Part shown: positions 34,739-62,337 of the stretch, one piece after another
How positions within the stretch are numbered: position 1 is the first letter of the stretch
How the letters are laid out: each line of letters starts with the position of its first letter
Notes under the pieces: generated by a model
What the model was told of the DNA's origin: nothing
Database searches by the model: none
What the model saw: the letters and a program-made list of their open reading frames with translations, nothing else
Position numbers and translations under genes: made by a program
Source of the DNA: a virus
Strand: one strand, 5' to 3'
DNA length: 64,000 bases
IMG/VR virus record: IMGVR_UViG_3300050821_007764
Coordinates: 1-64,000 of that record

Positions 34739-35098
34739 GTGAAGAAGCAGCTGACCGGGGACGCGATGTTCTACCGCGCCTGGTCCTCCGGACTGAGCGT
34801 CAGCCATGCGGCGTTTCTCGCGAACATGGTCGATTTGCCCGAGGGGGAGTACGCCGACGCGTTCATCCGGGCCATACTGCGGGGTGTTTCACTTCACCGT
34901 ACGCCGAGCCGGATGCGGCGGTACATTGTCCGGAACCGCCGGGCGTACCACCACGACCAGGCACTCATCGCCCGGCACGAACGGGAAGTCCTGCGGGCCC
35001 GGGATGGCATGCGCTGCCACCAGTGCCGTGCCGTCCCGCCGCAGCCGGGCGAGATCATGGACCCGGAGTCCATCGAGTACATTGCCAGCTTGACCTAG
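34739..35098 (+). CDS. hypothetical protein
   Basis: operon tiling. Confidence 0.6.
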   Translation: MKKQLTGDAMFYRAWSSGLSVSHAAFLANMVDLPEGEYADAFIRAILRGVSLHRTPSRMRRYIVRNRRAYHHDQALIARHEREVLRARDGMRCHQCRAVPPQPGEIMDPESIEYIASLT

Positions 35099-35115
35099 GA
35101 AAAGGAAGGCAGGAC

Positions 35116-35616
35116 GTGAACGCCATCAAATACGTGATTGGCGACGCCACCGCACCGATAGGCGAAGGCCCCCAACTGATCGCGCACATCTGCAACGACC
35201 AGGGCGGCTGGGGATCCGGCTTCGTCCTCGCCGTCTCCAAGCGCTGGCCCGAACCGGAGGAGATGTACCGGTCCTGGGCACGCATGGGCAGCGGCGGAGG
35301 GTTTCGCCTCGGAGAGACACAGTTCGCGCACGTCTCGCTCAACCACAACATCGTCGTGGCCAACATGGTGGCCCAGCGCGGATTCGTCACCGGGGACAAC
35401 CGCCGGGCCGTGGACTACGACGCGTTGCGCACGTGCCTGGAGACCGTCGCGCTGGTGGCCACCGGTAGCGCCGTCGTGTTCACCCCCCGCTCCTCCGTGC
35501 ACATGCCCCGCATCGGCTGTGGCCTGGGCGGCGGCACCTGGGAGGAGATTGAGCTCATCATCACGGAGACGCTGGTGAACAGCGGCGTGGACGTCACCGT
35601 CTACGACCTGCCGTGA
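35116..35616 (+). CDS. macrodomain ADP-ribosylhydrolase (SCO6735/TARG1/DarG-like class)
   Basis: GDAT..IAHICNDQGGWGSGFV..HMPRIGCGLGGGTW..VTVYD. Confidence 0.9.
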   Translation: MNAIKYVIGDATAPIGEGPQLIAHICNDQGGWGSGFVLAVSKRWPEPEEMYRSWARMGSGGGFRLGETQFAHVSLNHNIVVANMVAQRGFVTGDNRRAVDYDALRTCLETVALVATGSAVVFTPRSSVHMPRIGCGLGGGTWEEIELIITETLVNSGVDVTVYDLP

Positions 35617-35885
35617 GCGGCACCGCACTGGACGACCTCGTCATCACCTTCACGGACGAGGTGCATGAGGACGTCTGCGAAGCCCCAAACAGCACCTGCT
35701 CCAAGGCGGCCATCTGGGACTTGATCAACGGCTGTGGCTGCACTTGGGCCATCTGCCACGACCACAAAGTGTGGGGGGAGAAGAAGTTCCGCGAACTCTT
35801 CCCGGACGGTACGGGCTACATGTGTGCCAGATGCCTCGCCAATGAGCCGCCCTACCGTTTCGTACCGCACCGGAGGAACCGTTGA
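35613..35885 (+). CDS. Cys-rich hypothetical protein
   Basis: GTGA overlap, several CxxC motifs. Confidence 0.6.
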   Translation: MSGTALDDLVITFTDEVHEDVCEAPNSTCSKAAIWDLINGCGCTWAICHDHKVWGEKKFRELFPDGTGYMCARCLANEPPYRFVPHRRNR

Positions 35886-36172
35886 GCCGATACTCCCTCG
35901 TTCACCGTAAGGACAACACCGTCCGGGACCTCACCTTCCGCCGGTACAAAGGAATGCACCGGCCGATGGAATGGAGCGCCTACAACTTCTACGTCGGAAA
36001 GGAACGCTGGGGATTCGTCACCCACACGCTCGGCAGCAAGGGCCGCCAGTGGACAGCGCACTCCTTCAATCAGGACGTTCCCAAGGGCCTGCGTAAGCAG
36101 AACGGCTTCGCCACGCGCTTCGAGGCCGGACGCTACATCATCAAGACCTACGGCTACTGGGAGAACGACTGA
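35882..36172 (+). CDS. hypothetical protein
   Basis: GGAGG RBS, TTG. Confidence 0.65.
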   Translation: MSRYSLVHRKDNTVRDLTFRRYKGMHRPMEWSAYNFYVGKERWGFVTHTLGSKGRQWTAHSFNQDVPKGLRKQNGFATRFEAGRYIIKTYGYWEND

Positions 36173-36582
36173 TGGACATGGAGGAGCTGGCCGACCCGAT
36201 ACTGCGAGAGATCCGCAAAAGAAGCGCGGACAGCAACCCGGTCGACTTTCTGGTGGAAGGGCACCGCCACGGCCTGCGCGGGTGCCGGTGCCTGTCCTGT
36301 GACGTCACCACCGGCTACATGATCAGCACGGGTGTCACCTGTGACGAGATTCCCGAGGCGGCTGACGCGTGTGATGGTGGCTGTCTCTGCCCTGTGCTGA
36401 CCGAGGGACAGGCGGAGTCCCTCATCCGGGCGGACCTGGACCGCTCGTGGCTGCTCGGGGAGGTCCGGCGGCTGGAGGGTCTTGTTGCGGCCCACCAGCG
36501 GGTTGAACTCCGGCTGGCCCGGGAGGCGGCAGGACCGTGGCCCTTCCAGGTGGTTCGCAGGCGAAGGAAGGAACAGGCGTGA
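36172..36582 (+). CDS. Cys-rich hypothetical protein
   Basis: TGATG coupling. Confidence 0.6.
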   Translation: MDMEELADPILREIRKRSADSNPVDFLVEGHRHGLRGCRCLSCDVTTGYMISTGVTCDEIPEAADACDGGCLCPVLTEGQAESLIRADLDRSWLLGEVRRLEGLVAAHQRVELRLAREAAGPWPFQVVRRRRKEQA

Positions 36583-37268
36583 ACGGCGAGGTACTACTAC
36601 AGGGCATCGTAGGAAGCCAGGCGTATGGCTTCGCGCATGAGGGGTCGGACATCGACCGCCTCGGACTGTACGCCGCGCCGACGTCCTCATTCTTCGGGCT
36701 GGGGAAGCCGCAGGAGTCCTACGTCACCACCAAGCCGGACCTCACCCTGCACGAGGCCCAGAAGTGGTGCCGTCTGGCCCTCAAGTGCAACCCCACGGCC
36801 ATGGAACTCGTCTGGCTGCCGGAGGGTCTTTACGAGGTCCGGCACCCCCTCGGGGATGACCTGATCGCTATCCGGCGGTCCTTCCTGTCCGCCAGGGCCG
36901 TCCGCAACTCCTACCTCGGTTACGCCAGCAGTCAGCTCAGCAAGCTGAAGCACACGGCCATCAAGATGGACACGCACGAGGATCCTGCCGCTGTGCAGGA
37001 CCGGCGGCGTAAGCACGCACGGCACCTGGTCCGCCTCATGCTGCAAGGCGTCGGGCTGCACCAGGGCGATGACCTTGTTGTCCGGTTGCCGTCTCCTGGT
37101 TACGTGGTGGAGACGGCCAGCGCGATCGTCCTGGATCCCAGGATCGGGGACATGCTGCTGGCTGGTGCGGAGAAGGTCTTCGACAAAACCAGCCAGCTGC
37201 CGGAGGAGCCGAACACGGTCGTGGTGGAGGCGTGGCTGCACGGGGTGCGCCGGTCGTTCCTGGAGTAG
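36579..37268 (+). CDS. Pol-beta superfamily nucleotidyltransferase (YcgL/RlaP-like)
   Basis: GSQAYG..GSDID; KCNPTAMELV; KHARHLVRL. Confidence 0.85.
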   Translation: MNGEVLLQGIVGSQAYGFAHEGSDIDRLGLYAAPTSSFFGLGKPQESYVTTKPDLTLHEAQKWCRLALKCNPTAMELVWLPEGLYEVRHPLGDDLIAIRRSFLSARAVRNSYLGYASSQLSKLKHTAIKMDTHEDPAAVQDRRRKHARHLVRLMLQGVGLHQGDDLVVRLPSPGYVVETASAIVLDPRIGDMLLAGAEKVFDKTSQLPEEPNTVVVEAWLHGVRRSFLE

Positions 37269-51684: not shown

Positions 51685-52122
51685 ATGGAAAAGCAAGACG
51701 CGGTCATCTTCGACTACCAGGGCACGCTGGTCGACGTGCGCGGAATCCGGCACCTCATCGACGGGCCCGGAAGCTTCGACGCCTTCCATCTGGCCACCGT
51801 GAACTGCCTCCCGATCACGTGGGTCACCGCCGCAGCCAGCAAGGCCCACGAAGACGGGCTCATTGTCCTGGTCGGCACCGGCATGAACGATCCGTACCGG
51901 CGGCACCTGGACTGGTGGCTCGCTGATCACGGGGTCCATGCGGACGACGTGCAGATGCGGGTTGACAAGGACTACCGCAAGGACTTCATTGTCAAGCGGG
52001 AGATGCTGGAACGCTGGCGGCAGAAGTACAACATCATCAGGGCGTACGACGATCGACCAGAGATATGTGATCTCTGGGAGTCGGAAGGAATTCCGGTCAT
52101 CATGGTTCCAGGTTGGGAGTAA
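51685..52122 (+). CDS. HAD-family phosphatase (PNKP phosphatase-like; DxQ variant)
   Basis: IFDYQGTLVD, TG, MR..D..D..VK, YDDRP. Confidence 0.85.
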   Translation: MEKQDAVIFDYQGTLVDVRGIRHLIDGPGSFDAFHLATVNCLPITWVTAAASKAHEDGLIVLVGTGMNDPYRRHLDWWLADHGVHADDVQMRVDKDYRKDFIVKREMLERWRQKYNIIRAYDDRPEICDLWESEGIPVIMVPGWE

Positions 52123-55274: not shown

Positions 55275-55640
55275 AAGTTGAAGCACAAGCTGAAACTGAT
55301 GGAGCAACCTCGTTCAACGTGCAGGTTCGATCCCTGCCCGGGGCTCTGTGCCCATGCCTGTCGACGTCAGACATGGGCACGCGCACTTCCTCTGCTTGGA
55401 CACGGCAGAGGAAGTGCACCCGCCCCGGTGGCCCAAATGGTAGAGGCGTTCGAGGGCCATGAAGCTGAAGCTCTCGCTCCAACATGAAACAACAGCGCCA
55501 AACCCGTAATCGACGAGACCAGCACTACAGTGGGAGAATGGCGGTTCGAATCCGTTCCTGGGCACTCCGAGCCCGGGTGGCCGTAATGGGAACGGCAGCC
55601 TGCTTTGAAGCTGAAACTGGTCCGACAGTGTACGGGCGAG
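55275..55640 (+). ncRNA. ncRNA with two circularly permuted tRNA-like domains and AAGCUGAA repeats
   Basis: T arm, acceptor, D arm order at 55321-55447 and 55540-55597. Confidence 0.75.
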
Positions 55641-58178: not shown

Positions 58179-58447
58179 CGAAAGGCTGGACGTCGATCGG
58201 CCTGAAAACGGTCGGCGACGACGACGCGCTGTGGACCGCCTCGGAGGCCGCTGTCCTGCTCGGTCCGCCTGATCTGAGCCCAGACGAGGTGCGGCACCTG
58301 ATACGGCTCTTCAGCATCGAACCGGCCGGAAAGCGCCGGACGACAGGCCACGGCATCGCAGGGCGGCATGCGAGGGTGTACCGGGCCAGTGAGCTTATTG
58401 AGGCGTACGACAGGCTCTCCAGGGGCGTCGGAAGGGGGATGCAGTGA
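58175..58447 (+). CDS. small HTH-like protein
   Basis: LWTASEAAVLLG..VYRASELI. Confidence 0.65.
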   Translation: MTKGWTSIGLKTVGDDDALWTASEAAVLLGPPDLSPDEVRHLIRLFSIEPAGKRRTTGHGIAGRHARVYRASELIEAYDRLSRGVGRGMQ

Positions 58448-58980
58448 GGGTCACGTTCGACTGGGAGTTCCTGGACGATGACGGTGAGCGGATTCACCCC
58501 ATCTCCCTGGGAATGGTGCGTGAGGACGGCACCGAGTACTACGCCATCAACCAGGACATGCCGTTCGGGCCGATCTCCCGGAATGCGTGGCTGATGCAGA
58601 ACGTCATGCCATCCCTACCGGTTCGTACCGGGCACAACGACCCATGGGACCGGGAGCACCCCGATTTCATCCACGTGAAGCCGAAGAACCAGATCCGTCA
58701 GGAAGTACTCCATTTCCTGATGCAGACCCCGTCCCCAAGTCTGTGGGCGTGGTTCGCGGCGTACGACTTCGTACTCTTCGCGCAGTTATTCGGCCGCATG
58801 CTGGATATCCCGGTCGGGCTTCCACAACGCACCAACGACATCGCGCAGGAGTGGGAGAGCCTCGGGTACCCGCGCCTGCCGGAGCAGCCGCACGGGAATC
58901 ACAACGCTTTGCAGGACGCCCGATTCAACCTCGTTCGGCTGCTTTGGCTCGATCAGATCGCCAAGGAAGGAAAAGAATGA
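58444..58980 (+). CDS. DEDDh 3'-5' exoribonuclease (RNase AS / Rv2179c-like)
   Basis: FDWEFLDD, ISLGMV.EDG.EYYA, WAWFAAYDFV, HNALQDAR. Confidence 0.9.
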   Translation: MRVTFDWEFLDDDGERIHPISLGMVREDGTEYYAINQDMPFGPISRNAWLMQNVMPSLPVRTGHNDPWDREHPDFIHVKPKNQIRQEVLHFLMQTPSPSLWAWFAAYDFVLFAQLFGRMLDIPVGLPQRTNDIAQEWESLGYPRLPEQPHGNHNALQDARFNLVRLLWLDQIAKEGKE

Positions 58981-59911: not shown

Positions 59912-59941
59912 TTGTAGACGCACCGTGAGCACGTGTAGTGT
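59912..59941 (+). promoter_or_regulatory. promoter for the Y-RNA/Ro60 unit
   Basis: TTGTAG-N18-TAGTGT just before RNA unit 1. Confidence 0.55.
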
Positions 59942-59950
59942 CAGAGACGT

Positions 59951-60096
59951 CGGAAGGGCCGGGGTACAGAATCCGGTTACTTCATTTGAATGATAATCAA
60001 AGGTTATGGGTTCGAGTCCCATCGGGTCCACTTGTGGGCCTGTAGCTCAATTGGCAGAGAAACGTGCCCGGTTTCGCTTTGATATCGTCCCTTCCG
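59951..60096 (+). ncRNA. YrlA-like Y RNA 1, permuted tRNA with Ile(GAT) anticodon loop
   Basis: closing CGGAAGGG/CCCTTCCG; TTTGA-ATGATAA-TCAAA; T arm, looped acceptor, D arm. Confidence 0.8.
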
Positions 60097-60110
60097 TCAC
60101 AGACTTCCTC

Positions 60111-60243
60111 TCAGGTGTACAGGTAGCGGTTACTTCCCTCTGCAAAAGGAGAGACGCGGGTTCGAATCCCGTCCGGCCCTCTACGGGTCGGTTGCGTAGC
60201 GGCCTAACGCGCTTAATGTTCCTGCTTCCGCTTTGAAATCTGA
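60111..60243 (+). ncRNA. YrlA-like Y RNA 2, permuted tRNA with Cys(GCA) anticodon loop
   Basis: CCT-CTGCAAA-AGG; GCGGG-TTCGAAT-CCCGT; CCGGCCC/GGGTCGG; D arm. Confidence 0.8.
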
Positions 60244-60261
60244 CTGGCACAACTTCATACA

Positions 60262-60402
60262 CTGCCTGGTGTACAGGAGACGGTTACTTCCCCTTTGGAG
60301 GGAGAGGTCGCGGGTTCAAGTCCCGCCTGGCTGGGGAAACCGGCCGGTAGCTCAGTTGGTTAGAGCGCTCACGTTCCCGTCCCCGCTTTTGAAATCAGGC
60401 AG
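60262..60402 (+). ncRNA. YrlA-like Y RNA 3, permuted tRNA with Gln(TTG) anticodon loop
   Basis: TTCCC-CTTTGGA-GGGAG, AGGTC, T arm, CTGGCTG/CGGCCGG, TAGCTCAGTTGGTTAGAGC. Confidence 0.82.
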
Positions 60403-60405
60403 GTT

Positions 60406-60515
60406 GCAGGAGCCGCTTCCGGTGTACTGCACGCGGATACTTCACCTTTGTTTCTGGTACAAAATAGTGAGAGTCTTCCCCCCGCGTGTGCTTCGATATC
60501 GGAGACGGCTCCTGC
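60406..60515 (+). ncRNA. Y RNA-like unit 4, scaffold plus lone Gln(CTG) anticodon hairpin
   Basis: same GGTGTAC..TACTTC / GCTTCGATATC scaffold; TTTGT-TTCTGGT-ACAAA. Confidence 0.72.
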
Positions 60516-60553
60516 TTGATATCGGCACCCACCGGTGTAGGAAAGGAACAGAG

Positions 60554-62293
60554 ATGGCCCGCTACAACATCCAGAAGCCCCCGCGCACCCAGGTCCAGGG
60601 CGGCTCCGCATACCCCGCCAAGGGCACCAGCAGCCAGCAGGCCACCGCCGTCAACGGTGAGGGCCGCACCGCATGGCTGATGGACGAGAAAACCGGGCTC
60701 TACCTCGGGGCCACCTCGGCGTTCGCCGGACAGGACACCTTCTACGAGAAGGGTGCCGAGCGCGACGAACGCCTCATCGCCTTGGCGCACAAGCTCGCCG
60801 TCGAGGACTTCGCGTGGACCTACGACTTCCTGGTCTGGCTGCGCTCCGAGGGCAATATGCGCACCGCCCCGATCATGCTCGCTGTTGAGGTTGTCCGTGC
60901 ACGCATTGCCGCCAGGGAATACGGCGCTGCCGGGTCCCGTGTACCAGAGCCGGGATCTGGCCAAGTCGCCATGACCAACCGTCGGCTCATCGATGCCGTC
61001 CTCCAGCGCGCGGACGAGCCCGGTGAAATGCTGGCCTACTGCGAGAACATCCACGGACGCCCCACGCCGAAAGCCATCAAGCGCGGTGCCGCTGACGCGG
61101 TTGCGCGCCTGTACAACGAGCGGAACTTCCTGCGCTACAACAGCGAGACCAAGGCGCTGGGGTTCGGTGCCGTGATCGAGCTCGCGCAGATGGACCGCAT
61201 TCCCGGCTGGCAGGGCGACCTGTTCCGGTACGCCATCGACATGCAGCACGGCAACGCCAAGGAGATCCCGGACAGCCTGACCGCCCTCCGGGCCCGTGAC
61301 GCGGTCAACAAGATGACGCCCCAGGAACGGCACAACACTGCCCGCCGCGAGCTGGCAGCACCCGGCTCAACGGTGCTCACGTCCGCGATGGCAGGACAGT
61401 GGGAGTGGCTCCACTCGGCACTCGGTGACACGAAGGGCGTCAAGGGCGCGCTGACCAAGAAAGAGCAGTGGGAGCTCGTTGCCCCGCAGATGGGCATCGG
61501 CGCTGTCGTCAAGAACCTGCGCAACCTGGACGAGGCCGGTTTCCGTACAGGCGATCCGGTGGTTACGCGTTTCTGCGAGCGTCTCGGCAACGAGCAGCAG
61601 ATCGCACGCTCCCGCATGTTCCCGTTTCGGTTCTTCACGGCCTACCTGATGCTAAACAGCGTCACGTGGTCCGCAGCGCTGGAACAGGCCGCCAACCACT
61701 CCCTGGCCAGCATCCCCGACCTGCCCGGCCGCACGCTGGTCCTGGTGGACACCTCGGACTCCATGAACAGCAAGGTGTCCAAGGACTCCGTCATGACCTA
61801 CATGAAGGCCGCCGCGCTGTTCGGCACCGCCTTGAAGATCAAGAGCCCGGACCGGGTCGATCTCTGGGGCTTCGCCGACGGCCAGTTCCGCGCGGACGCG
61901 GGCCACGGGTACAGCCTGCTGCGGTGTGCCGAGGACTTCACCAAGCAGTCCGGCATTGTCGGCCACGGCACCGCCATGGAGGCCGCCATTCGGGCCACCT
62001 ACGACAAGCACGACCGGGTGATCATTCTGTCGGACATGCAGGCGTTTCCCGACGAGTCCACGCTGAGCGGTTGGCCGTACCGGAACTACTACGCCCCCGG
62101 CGGAGCCATTGGCGACGTCGCCGCAGCGGTCCCGGTCAAGGTCCCTGTGTACGGATTCCACCTGGCGGCCGGAAAGACCACGCCGCTCGGAAAGGGCAAC
62201 CGGCACAGCCTGGGCGGCCTGTCGGACGCATCCTTCAAGCAGATCGGTCAGCTGGAAAAGCTGGGTGTCGGTTCCTGGCCCTGGCAGTCCTGA
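60554..62293 (+). CDS. Ro60/Rsr-like TROVE domain protein with C-terminal vWA
   Basis: DTFYE..RDER; WLRSEGNMRT; QRADEPGE; KNLRNLDEAG; SRMFPFRFFTAY; LVDTSDSM; ILSDMQ. Confidence 0.92.
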   Translation: MARYNIQKPPRTQVQGGSAYPAKGTSSQQATAVNGEGRTAWLMDEKTGLYLGATSAFAGQDTFYEKGAERDERLIALAHKLAVEDFAWTYDFLVWLRSEGNMRTAPIMLAVEVVRARIAAREYGAAGSRVPEPGSGQVAMTNRRLIDAVLQRADEPGEMLAYCENIHGRPTPKAIKRGAADAVARLYNERNFLRYNSETKALGFGAVIELAQMDRIPGWQGDLFRYAIDMQHGNAKEIPDSLTALRARDAVNKMTPQERHNTARRELAAPGSTVLTSAMAGQWEWLHSALGDTKGVKGALTKKEQWELVAPQMGIGAVVKNLRNLDEAGFRTGDPVVTRFCERLGNEQQIARSRMFPFRFFTAYLMLNSVTWSAALEQAANHSLASIPDLPGRTLVLVDTSDSMNSKVSKDSVMTYMKAAALFGTALKIKSPDRVDLWGFADGQFRADAGHGYSLLRCAEDFTKQSGIVGHGTAMEAAIRATYDKHDRVIILSDMQAFPDESTLSGWPYRNYYAPGGAIGDVAAAVPVKVPVYGFHLAAGKTTPLGKGNRHSLGGLSDASFKQIGQLEKLGVGSWPWQS

Positions 62294-62300
62294 AACGCAA

Positions 62301-62337
62301 ACAAGAGCCCCGCTCCGGAAAGGAGCGGGGCTCTTGT
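62301..62337. terminator. bidirectional terminator between convergent arms
   Basis: ACAAGAGCCCCGCTCC-GGAAA-GGAGCGGGGCTCTTGT. Confidence 0.85.

Follow-up and report, generated by a model that had tools for sequence, protein, structure and literature searches.

YrlA RNAs are the best-studied bacterial Y RNAs and have been described as tRNA mimics without an anticodon loop. They lie beside Ro60 in 254 bacteria and 22 phages, share a conserved YUAY element, are bound by Rsr and modified by tRNA enzymes, and contain a less conserved hairpin that was modelled as a 'V' arm (Chen et al. 2014, PMC4201824). Here we analyse an array of four Y-RNA units preceding a Ro60 (TROVE) gene in IMG/VR record IMGVR_UViG_3300050821_007764, an uncultured soil phage of 89 kb that is estimated to be 86% complete; the stretch of DNA studied, i.e. 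the first 64 kb of this record (positions 1 to 64,000), is referred to as the window. As regards their structural identity, units 1 to 3 are very probably YrlA-class Y RNAs, i.e. circularly permuted tRNA mimics predicted to be opened at position 26/27, with a handle inserted at that point. Judged by its sequence signatures, the 'V arm' hairpin is a conserved, covarying anticodon arm of the isoacceptor type in a large YrlA subfamily, the anticodons read in the units described here being GAU, GCA and UUG.

An earlier sequence-only reading of the window had left it undecided whether this form of array was on record. Three tandem YrlAs are located upstream of Ro in Caulobacter phage CcrColossus (Chen et al. 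2014, Table S2, PMC4201824), and two Yrl RNAs (Yrl1 and Yrl2), together with recruitment of polynucleotide phosphorylase, have been described for the Ro60 of Thermus phage phiLo (2025, PMC12135203). Both arrays resemble the present one in that several Y-RNA genes stand in a row just 5' of a phage Ro60, whereas there are four units here and the accessible descriptions of those arrays report no anticodon content; the phiLo Yrls are presented as stem-bulge-stem RNAs with a CGAA motif, a tRNA domain going unmentioned in the accessible text. YrlA from S. Typhimurium has been suggested to be a competitive inhibitor of an anticodon nuclease (Hughes et al. 2020), and Ro with a tRNA-like partner to be a repair platform in jumbo phages (Iyer et al. 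2021). Tandem YrlA arrays and the decoy idea are, hence, already published. What appears undescribed is a large YrlA subfamily, this array included, with genuine anticodon-type arms of varied anticodons; no publication that we found names the YrlA hairpin an anticodon arm, an earlier mention in reviews being possible.

Four units on one scaffold precede the Ro60 gene

The locus comprises a promoter-like site, the four Y-RNA units, the Ro60 gene, a terminator hairpin and a convergent endolysin gene (coordinates are given in Table 1). The units, each ~150 nt long and all within 59951-60512, share a scaffold that reads GG(G/T)GTAC, followed after 5-10 nt by GG(T/A)TACTTC, on the 5' side and GCTT(T/TT/C)GA(A/T)ATC on the 3' side. 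Within the 64-kb window GGWTACTTC is found solely at 59975, 60128, 60282 and 60435 (spacing 153/154/153), i.e. in four copies, with 0.36 copies expected and four copies reached in 0 of 100 shuffles. Each unit has a closing stem of its own, formed by 59951-58/60089-96 in unit 1, by 60111-14/60240-43 plus CC/GG past a 2x2 mismatch in unit 2, by 60262-68/60396-60402 in unit 3 and by 60409-21/60500-12 in unit 4. The sequence-only reading, which had described four units with a common scaffold and separate terminal stems in front of the TROVE gene, is borne out by these findings.

The tRNA parts were assigned by a custom parser, which arrived at the order that had been read by eye (anticodon arm, variable loop, T arm, looped acceptor, D arm) and at the same coordinates. 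In all three units the T stem comprises 5 bp and is followed by a 7-bp acceptor-like stem closed by 5-7 nt, two linker bases and the D arm. Unit 1 is composed of TTTGA-ATGATAA-TCAAA with 5/5 pairs, the variable loop GGTT, an acceptor stem with 7/7 pairs closed by ACTTGT, the linker TA and a D arm with 3/4 pairs; its acceptor end carries G3.U70 and A73. Unit 2 has TCCCT-CTGCAAA-AGGAG (4/5 pairs), the variable loop AGAC, an acceptor stem with 7/7 pairs, the linker TT and a D arm with 4/4 pairs, and unit 3 has TTCCC-CTTTGGA-GGGAG (5/5 pairs), AGGTC, 7/7 acceptor pairs, the linker TA and 4/4 D-stem pairs. Unit 4 consists of the scaffold without a tRNA body and holds the hairpin TTTGT-TTCTGGT-ACAAA (60447-63), which presents a 7-nt loop within a long stem (minimum free energy, MFE, z = -4.07). 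Single-sequence folds are weak evidence in this context, as units 2 and 3 have z values of -0.30 and -1.07 and in the MFE structures the tRNA parts are paired wrongly.

A fifth permuted tRNA-like element is located at 55510-55599 on the plus strand, inside the tRNA cluster and 5 kb 5' of Ro60. It has a T arm, an acceptor-like stem with 7/7 pairs closed by ACTCCGA and a D arm with 4/4 pairs, and R1, the covariance model described below, matches it full-length with 30 bits. Its hairpin at the anticodon position is poor (3/5 pairs, no U33), and the GGWTACTTC handle is absent, a GCTTTGAA-like 3' motif standing after the element.

YrlA-class features of units 1 to 3

As in YrlA RNAs, a Ro60 gene lies within 4 kb on the same strand, with the units ending 42-458 nt upstream of the open reading frame (ORF) at 60554-62293. 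In units 1-3 a T arm is followed by a looped stem in acceptor position and a D arm, all with tRNA-type conserved nucleotides, and the YUAY element precedes the variable region as UUAC in units 1-3 and as AUAC in unit 4, in each case inside GGWTACTTC. The likeness extends to the 7-nt loops, which are also present in published actinobacterial and mycobacteriophage members of the class, the difference being that the hairpin was there presented as a 'V' arm (Chen et al. 2014, PMC4201824) and has the form of an isoacceptor-type anticodon arm here.

A search with a YrlA covariance model had been proposed as a check and gave a divided answer. The Rfam YrlA model (RF02553) matches all three units (scores in Table 1), locally at model positions 23-86, i.e. 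T arm, acceptor-like stem and D arm, and none of them reaches the gathering score of 69 bits because the extra hairpin and the divergent handle break the model. A second model, R1, was built from an alignment (A2) of 48 units of other genomes, with none from the window. R1 matches the three units over their full length (E 7e-20 to 5e-12; Table 1), which, together with the adjoining TROVE gene, upholds their reading as Ro60-associated Y RNAs of YrlA type. The next-best R1 scores in the window, 43.5 and 40.1 bits, belong to tandem tRNAs and are below those of all three units; that tandem tRNAs score with YrlA-type models is on record (Chen et al. 2014, methods, PMC4201824).

These scores of tandem tRNAs could indicate that the units are an artefact, i.e. 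ordinary tRNA genes, decayed ones, or tandem tRNAs mistaken for permuted units, and ARAGORN indeed annotates 59956-60031 as tRNA-Ile(gat) and 60262-60334 as tRNA-Gln(ttg), i.e. units 1 and 3. The anticodon arms of units 1-3 have the 7-nt loop, U33 and purine 37 of canonical tRNAs. Both ARAGORN calls, however, are miscalls that come about because the handle is borrowed as acceptor stem and D arm, and the Rfam tRNA scores of the units (26.7, 21.7 and 18.9) are under the threshold of 29. The canonical order (acceptor, D, anticodon, T, acceptor, with free ends) is not that of the units, in which the D arm stands 3' of the T arm and the acceptor strands pair 7/7 across a loop of 5-7 nt that joins them. 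Finally, a scaffold foreign to tRNAs is common to the four units and is found beside TROVE genes in dozens of phages, so that we regard an artefact as extremely improbable. For annotation the units nevertheless are a trap, as Y RNAs of this kind could be miscounted as phage tRNA genes.

Two other kinds of permuted RNA invite comparison. Permuted tRNA genes of red algae and an archaeon likewise have the 3' half first and acceptor ends joined by a short loop, but they are loop-opened and spliced via a circular intermediate to ordinary tRNAs (discussion of Wang et al. 2018, 10.1101/312249). In the units of the window, in contrast, the break lies between the D and anticodon stems and is filled by the Ro60 handle. 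Two-piece tmRNA likewise has a permuted tRNA-like domain, the acceptor loop of tmRNA being opened by processing, unit 1 has an alanine-type G3.U70/A73 end, and Rfam tmRNA_permuted gives a weak match at 60006-60044 (19.2 bits). The units differ from it in that they have an anticodon arm, which tmRNA lacks, and carry no mRNA-like frame; ARAGORN reports no tmRNA in the window, and the mRNA-like tag of two-piece tmRNA is not present in the units.

The additional hairpin as an anticodon-type arm

Phage units were collected with the pattern GGTTACTTC-N15-45-GGTTCRANNCC, which is present in at least 123 IMG/VR stretches (~570 estimated); all counts of phage units rest on the matches listed. The gap lengths within these matches peak at 21-22 nt, i.e. 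at the length demanded by a 5-7-5 hairpin that overlaps the 'TTC', plus a variable loop of 4-5 nt. TROVE is encoded by 35 of the first 50 contigs of the set and by 18 of 20 with a completeness of 90% or more, and the gene lies ~0.5-1.5 kb from the units in the contigs compared (G031, G021, G015 and G010).

Among the 134 distinct phage units, 77 are permuted, which here means that an acceptor stem with at least 6/7 pairs and a D stem with at least 3/4 pairs follow the T arm and that the sequence upstream is too short to hold a D arm. These 77 units were chosen without regard to the hairpin, and an arm was counted if it has at least 4/5 pairs, 5-7-5 geometry and 4-5 nt before the T stem. Such an arm is formed in 52 of them, a count that was not attained in any of 2000 shuffles of the partner strands (mean 24, maximum 35). 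A loop length of 7 nt fits 85 of the 134 units, other lengths fit 31-49. Pairs 31-39, 30-40 and 29-41 are formed in 60, 63 and 69 of the 77 units as compared with 29, 31.5 and 45 expected by composition, and G-C, C-G, A-U and U-A are all present as swaps in the stem.

The loop has the composition of an anticodon loop. Across all 77 units U33 is found in 59, a purine at position 37 in 66 and A38 in 54, and the corresponding counts in the 52 arm-bearing units are 49, 47 and 41, along with C32 in 29 and 27 different triplets at positions 34-36. The possibility that homologous units have random loops without conserved U33 and purine 37, which the sequence-only reading had named as evidence against itself, can thus be set aside. 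The same pattern, run on bacterial species genomes (~2000 stretches estimated; the following counts are from the matches listed), retrieves units from Actinomycetota, Acidobacteriota, Planctomycetota, Verrucomicrobiota, Bacillota, Bacteroidota, Pseudomonadota and others. Of 86 permuted bacterial units, 49 have an arm; these display 28 anticodons, and C32 is found in 40 of them, U33 in 45, a purine at position 37 in 42 and A38 in 44. Hairpins of this kind are already contained in the published seed alignment, where the loops CTTCTAA (M. smegmatis, Streptosporangium), CTCATAA (Gordonia) and ATTGAAA (phage ET08) each precede NGGTY and then the T stem (Chen et al. 2014, PMC4201824).

Moreover, the bases next to the anticodon depend on it as they do in tRNAs. 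G37 follows G36 in 12 of 13 phage units and A37 follows U36 in 26 of 31; the tRNAs called by ARAGORN at the same loci, a list that contains a few miscalled units, have a like coupling (G36-G37 22 vs G36-A37 7; U36-A37 56 vs U36-G37 2). Several loop 7-mers of the units, i.e. CTGTTAA, CTTGTAA, CTCATAA, CTTCCAA and TTTGGGA, are identical to those of real tRNAs with the same anticodon. When the 52 units were rotated by a script, ARAGORN called a tRNA in 40 of them, in 37 with the parsed anticodon.

A first MAFFT alignment (A1, 68 units) is gapped inside the loop, and pair counts were instead taken from anchored positions and from the cleaner subset A2. RNAalifold predicts the hairpin unaided from A2. 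The named structure pairs 96.6% of the cells, with 73.3% in the shuffled control, figures that are biased upward since A2, like the 52-unit set, was picked for pairing, so that the unfiltered counts of the 77 units are the fair ones. The covariation score is 0.622, as compared with 0.172 for shuffled and at most 0.139 for slid registers; pair 12-22 is GC in 28, CG in 19 and UA in 1 unit, and pair 13-21 is AU in 30, CG in 14, UA in 3 and GC in 1.

The anticodons are unevenly distributed. U36 is found in 31 and A36 in 2 of the 52 phage units, GUU is the commonest anticodon (7 phage and 9 bacterial units), and GUN accounts for 23 of the 101 arm-bearing units. As regards a possible mimicry of whole isoacceptors by the units, D-arm types partly follow the anticodon (e.g. 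TCGTCTAA-type D arms occur with UCC), whereas acceptor ends and discriminators do not.

Alternatively, the hairpin may be a relic, i.e. a variable-arm brace left from a tRNA-dimer ancestor, with the Ro-proximal stem as the anticodon stem and a loop that has neither client nor function. The 'V' arm model (Chen et al. 2014, PMC4201824) accords with this view, as does the solved YrlA domain of Salmonella, in which the anticodon loop is absent and the Ro-proximal stem, i.e. the handle stem, takes the position of the anticodon stem; an origin from a tRNA dimer is discussed in the same paper, as is the parallel with permuted tRNA genes (Wang et al. 2018, 10.1101/312249). The outer stem pairs are in fact weak (28-42 is formed in 43 of 77 units with 35 expected, and 27-43 is mostly U.G), a good arm is missing in 25 of 77 phage and 37 of 86 bacterial units, and anticodons are not conserved among orthologues. 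A loop without function, however, would not be expected to keep U33, purine 37 and A38 in 79-94% of units across many phyla while 34-36 vary, nor to match real tRNAs in the coupling of positions 36 and 37 and in isoacceptor-specific 7-mers. The variable arm of class-II tRNAs is followed by 1-2 nt. The hairpin of the units is followed by a class-I-type NGGUY variable loop of 4-5 nt instead, and the 7-11 nt between D stem and handle stem in the units of the window break the continuity that would be expected of an anticodon stem. We therefore consider a relic unlikely and prefer the anticodon-arm reading.

Constant body and changing anticodon in relatives

The sequence-only reading had proposed a constant scaffold with interchangeable anticodons, and the relatives agree with it. 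Unit 1 has five orthologues (in L003, L301, L302, L303 and L001), and these six units keep the T arm, the acceptor stem, its loop ACTYNT and the set G1-C72, G2-C71, G3.U70 and A73 (60023-60042 in the window, 2308-2327 in L003); pair 4-69 switches from C-G to G-C, and the D stem is paired in all, its sequence varying by subgroup. Their loops, by contrast, are of four types, i.e. ATGATAA in the window and in Streptomyces phage BRock, CTGGATA in L003, CTGTGAA in Phredrick and ATTGGAA in Moab and Comrade. Between the units of Phredrick and Comrade, 7 of 17 arm positions differ, with few sites differing elsewhere. In 49 pairs of units with a body difference of at most 10%, the body differs by 0.061 per site and the 17-nt arm by 0.339, the latter value being partly due to register shift. 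Two tandem units in a metagenome-assembled genome (L179) have identical stems and the loops CAGATAA and CTTTGGA, and each of the 5 arrays in which two or more units bear an arm displays different anticodons.

The closest relative, L003, encodes a TROVE protein that is 61% identical and has five units, i.e. the orthologue of unit 1 with CTGGATA, an orthologue of unit 2 that has a GCAA-looped hairpin and shares TGCAAA, two units with CTGTTAA and ATGCGGA, and a handle-only unit (E). In this last unit the hairpin has a 4-nt loop, and the hairpin of unit 4, which had been read as a Gln CTG anticodon, was thus dismissed as a conserved anticodon hairpin, its anticodon reading being weak. The Cys GCA reading of unit 2 (loop CTGCAAA) is weak in view of the 4/5 stem and the GCAA loop of the orthologue. 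A close relative from other soil metagenomes has 46 differences and 6 gaps over 59932-60700 (~6 per 100 bases), which affect linkers, compensating positions in stems and the acceptor, D and T loops; among those listed, two further ones lying outside the list, none is inside the four 7-nt loops. At 60223 a T>C change turns a G.U of the inner handle stem of unit 2 into G-C, and changes at 60416/17 and 60505 improve the closing stem of unit 4.

Megablast of the locus against cultured phages gave zero matches. With R1, units were located in BRock (two) and in Phredrick, Moab, Comrade and Snenia (one per phage); none of these units is annotated, and all stand beside Ro-like genes. BRock (KX925554.1) has a four-unit array at L301:820-1305. 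With these unannotated units, cultured Streptomyces phages (BRock, Gilsonvirus) are ready experimental systems.

The G3.U70/A73-type acceptor end is the alanine identity set, which tmRNA uses too. Its presence in unit 1 and the five orthologues raises the question whether the units act as two-piece tRNAs, i.e. whether the acceptor loop is opened by RNase P, CCA is added and the nicked tRNA is charged and used, or misused, in translation. In M. smegmatis, RNase P cleaves YrlA within the acceptor loop, and CCA is added to the RNA in vivo (Chen et al. 2014, PMC4201824), for which reason the earlier statement that such RNAs cannot be charged is unsafe. The 7-bp acceptor stems of all three units and the acceptance of rotated units by ARAGORN would suit this possibility as well. 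On the other hand, acceptor ends do not go with the isoacceptor (e.g. position 73 is U, C or G among the seven GUU units), and G.U at 3-70 is found in 17 of 182 units, i.e. it is not enriched when compared with the 29 at position 5, and G3.U70 was discarded as a family-wide trait. The long variable arm of class-II tRNAs is missing from the units with the corresponding Ser (GCU), Leu and Tyr anticodons (CAG, UAG and GUA), and a 60-kDa ring held at position 26 by a handle of 40-50 nt would be expected to collide with the ribosome. An enzyme that would excise permuted tRNAs is not known in bacteria according to the discussion of Wang et al. (2018, 10.1101/312249). Use as two-piece tRNAs is thus very improbable. 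The same low probability applies to a more specific variant, in which RNAs of the unit-1 type, with their alanine end and freely varying anticodon, would be aminoacylated and act in a codon-specific manner on ribosomes or on charging or decoding factors; if true, the unit-1 type would be a programmable relative of tmRNA rather than a passive mimic.

Possible role of the Ro60-presented units

Each RNA would have a basal stem with motifs of the Ro60-binding type, the 5' strand holding GGKGUAC...GGWUACUUC and the 3' strand GCUUYGAWAUC. By analogy to other members of the family, the Ro60 ring of the phage may assemble with the unit RNAs via this handle, and the tRNA-like head may recruit or occupy a tRNA-binding protein. 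Given the anticodon arm, the partners would be proteins that recognise the anticodon loop along with the tRNA elbow and to which the particle offers tRNA mimics; most plausibly it would thereby bind competitively to, or bait, enzymes that cleave or modify tRNAs. Distinct anticodons could then provide a distinct client for each paralogue, and unit 4 would be a handle-only (YrlB-like) Y RNA. TrmD and the t6A machinery use the signatures G36-G37 and U36-A37-A38, and the element of Tgt is U33-G34-U35. Provided that the 'V arm' is a conserved anticodon arm of isoacceptor type in many phage and bacterial members, the candidates for a partner narrow to anticodon nucleases, TrmD, the t6A machinery, Tgt and synthetases. 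As the phage has 12 tRNA genes as well as genes for RNA-end healing and repair, a bait, competitor or sensor in tRNA-cleavage conflicts would be the most economical reading. Altogether we hold, with moderate confidence, that the units are YrlA mimics with anticodon arms that Ro60 presents to readers of the anticodon loop; the mode of action taken by itself is tentative.

Several observations weigh against this view, in addition to the subthreshold Rfam scores, the selection of the aligned units and the weak or missing arms already mentioned. The published Rsr motif GNCGAAN0-1G, a 5' motif proposed as the Rsr contact, has no literal match, the window having GGGGTACAG and GGTGTAC(A/T)G (GGKGUACAG) instead; in relatives the 5' motif grades from GGCGAAG via GGTGAAG and GGTGTAG to the form of the window. 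In L003 the orthologue of unit 1 carries U at position 37, that of unit 2 is a 5-bp stem with a GCAA loop, and the hairpin of unit 4 differs in the handle-only unit, i.e. it is not conserved. Unit 2 has an alternative register with 4 Watson-Crick pairs and an 8-nt loop, next to the 4/5 stem in tRNA register. The sole solved member, YrlA of S. Typhimurium, lacks such a hairpin, as far as the published account goes (Wang et al. 2018, 10.1101/312249), and given the topology of that structure any position assigned here to the hairpin in space, within a five-helix junction, is putative. A decoy would also compete with very abundant tRNAs. Furthermore, RNAs of the same type are common in bacterial chromosomes, so that their general role cannot be purely phage counter-defence, and the anti-defence function envisaged in the sequence-only reading is weakened to that extent. 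As a whole, that reading has been confirmed as an observation and is partly supported as an interpretation, being largely right on the structure and tentative on the function.

The presence of repair-type genes could also mean that Ro60 and the tRNA-shaped RNAs form a platform or guide for healing and sealing tRNAs that were cut in the anticodon loop, with one paralogue per tRNA. In many bacteria the genes for Ro60 and YrlA adjoin that for RtcB, and the literature contains the proposal of a role as repair platform. The phage encodes RlaP (PF10127, nucleotidyltransferase), a PNKP phosphatase domain (PF25109), a macro-type phosphatase (PHROG 335) and an RNase AS-like 3'-exoribonuclease; the RNA-end-healing/repair-type genes are located at 35023-37268, 51685-52122 and 58444-58980 of the window. 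The repair-type genes stand 8-25 kb from the operon, i.e. outside it, and searches for RtcB, RNA_ligase (PF09414) and PolyA_pol/CCA (PF01743) gave zero matches in the 86%-complete, 89-kb record, i.e. neither RtcB nor an Rnl-type ligase or a CCA-adding enzyme was found in it. To our knowledge there is no mechanism by which a tRNA mimic guides ligation, and a role as repair cofactor is, in our view, quite unlikely, competitive binding or baiting by Ro60-presented mimics being preferred.

Neighbouring features of the locus

Table 1. Features of the Ro60 locus and units in cultured phages. Positions refer to the window unless a locus handle is given.
Feature	Position	Strand	Basis or remark
Promoter-like site	59912..59941	+	TTGTAG 59912-17, 18-nt spacer, TAGTGT 59936-41; read from sequence
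Unit 1, Ro-handle and permuted tRNA mimic	59951..60096	+	parse; R1 62.9 bits; Rfam YrlA 26.8 bits
Unit 1, parts			arm 59985-60001 (loop ATGATAA 59990-96); variable loop 60002-05; T arm 60006-22; acceptor 60023-42; D arm 60045-60
Unit 2, Ro-handle and permuted tRNA mimic	60107..60247	+	parse; R1 53.7 bits; Rfam YrlA 22.9 bits
Unit 2, parts			arm 60135-51 (loop CTGCAAA 60140-46); variable loop 60152-55; T arm 60156-72; acceptor 60173-91; D arm 60194-60210
Unit 3, Ro-handle and permuted tRNA mimic	60262..60402	+	parse; R1 84.7 bits; Rfam YrlA 38.3 bits
Unit 3, parts			arm 60288-60304 (loop CTTTGGA 60293-99); variable loop 60305-09; T arm 60310-26; acceptor 60327-47; D arm 60350-66
Unit 4, Ro-handle scaffold without tRNA body, YrlB-like	60409..60512	+	fold z = -4.07
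Ro60/TROVE gene, 579 aa, ATG at 60554	60554..62293	+	Pfam TROVE and PHROG 850 matches
G+C-rich hairpin between the convergent Ro60 and endolysin genes	62301..62337	either	+ strand: short T-containing tail TTGTG
Further cultured-phage units (Gilsonvirus Comrade, Phredrick, Moab; Mycobacterium phage Snenia)	L001:2950-3100; L302:1150-1300; L303:1156-1306; L002:2976-3063		

The product of the Ro60 ORF matches Pfam TROVE (E 8.6e-8, 32.2 bits with a cut-off of 23) and PHROG 850, 'RNA-binding protein' (E 2e-32), and has a von Willebrand factor A (vWA)-type DxSxS motif at its C-terminus. In tblastn searches it is 32-37% identical to the products of genes annotated as 'Ro-like RNA binding protein' in Streptomyces, Gordonia and Arthrobacter phages (best 36.5%).

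The promoter that had been placed in front of the array is partly supported. Its arrangement, TTGnnn, a spacer of 17-18 nt and TAGTGT, is repeated in L003, and the same two hexamers are found in the close relative from other soil metagenomes, where the spacer, at the loose end of the match (59932), differs; a strict sigma-70 promoter scan reports 0 sites at the locus. Downstream of Ro60, the hairpin at 62301-62337 was scored as terminator-like on the minus strand (16 pairs, T-rich tail TTGCGTTTCA) and may end transcription from either direction.

The 12 tRNA genes of the phage, the DNA of which has a G+C content of 64%, are located at 49.7-56.5 kb. At gathering thresholds Rfam reports 11 ordinary tRNAs in the whole window and nothing else. 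The sequence-only reading had observed that no Cys or Gln tRNA gene occurs elsewhere in the window, which holds true; none is called in the remaining 25 kb of the record either.

Between unit 4 and the start of Ro60 (60514-60541), an extra GCTTGATATC (60514-23) and GGTGTAGG (60534-41) are present, the latter directly 5' of the ribosome-binding site. The GCTTGATATC/GGTGTAGG pair is absent from L003 and could be a remnant unit or a Ro60 site in the leader of its own gene. Furthermore, a spacer motif AACTTCAT(A), located at 60251-60259, recurs ~3-10 nt 5' of the closing stems of many units here and in L003, L005, L038 and L039, and may be a processing site or an internal promoter element.

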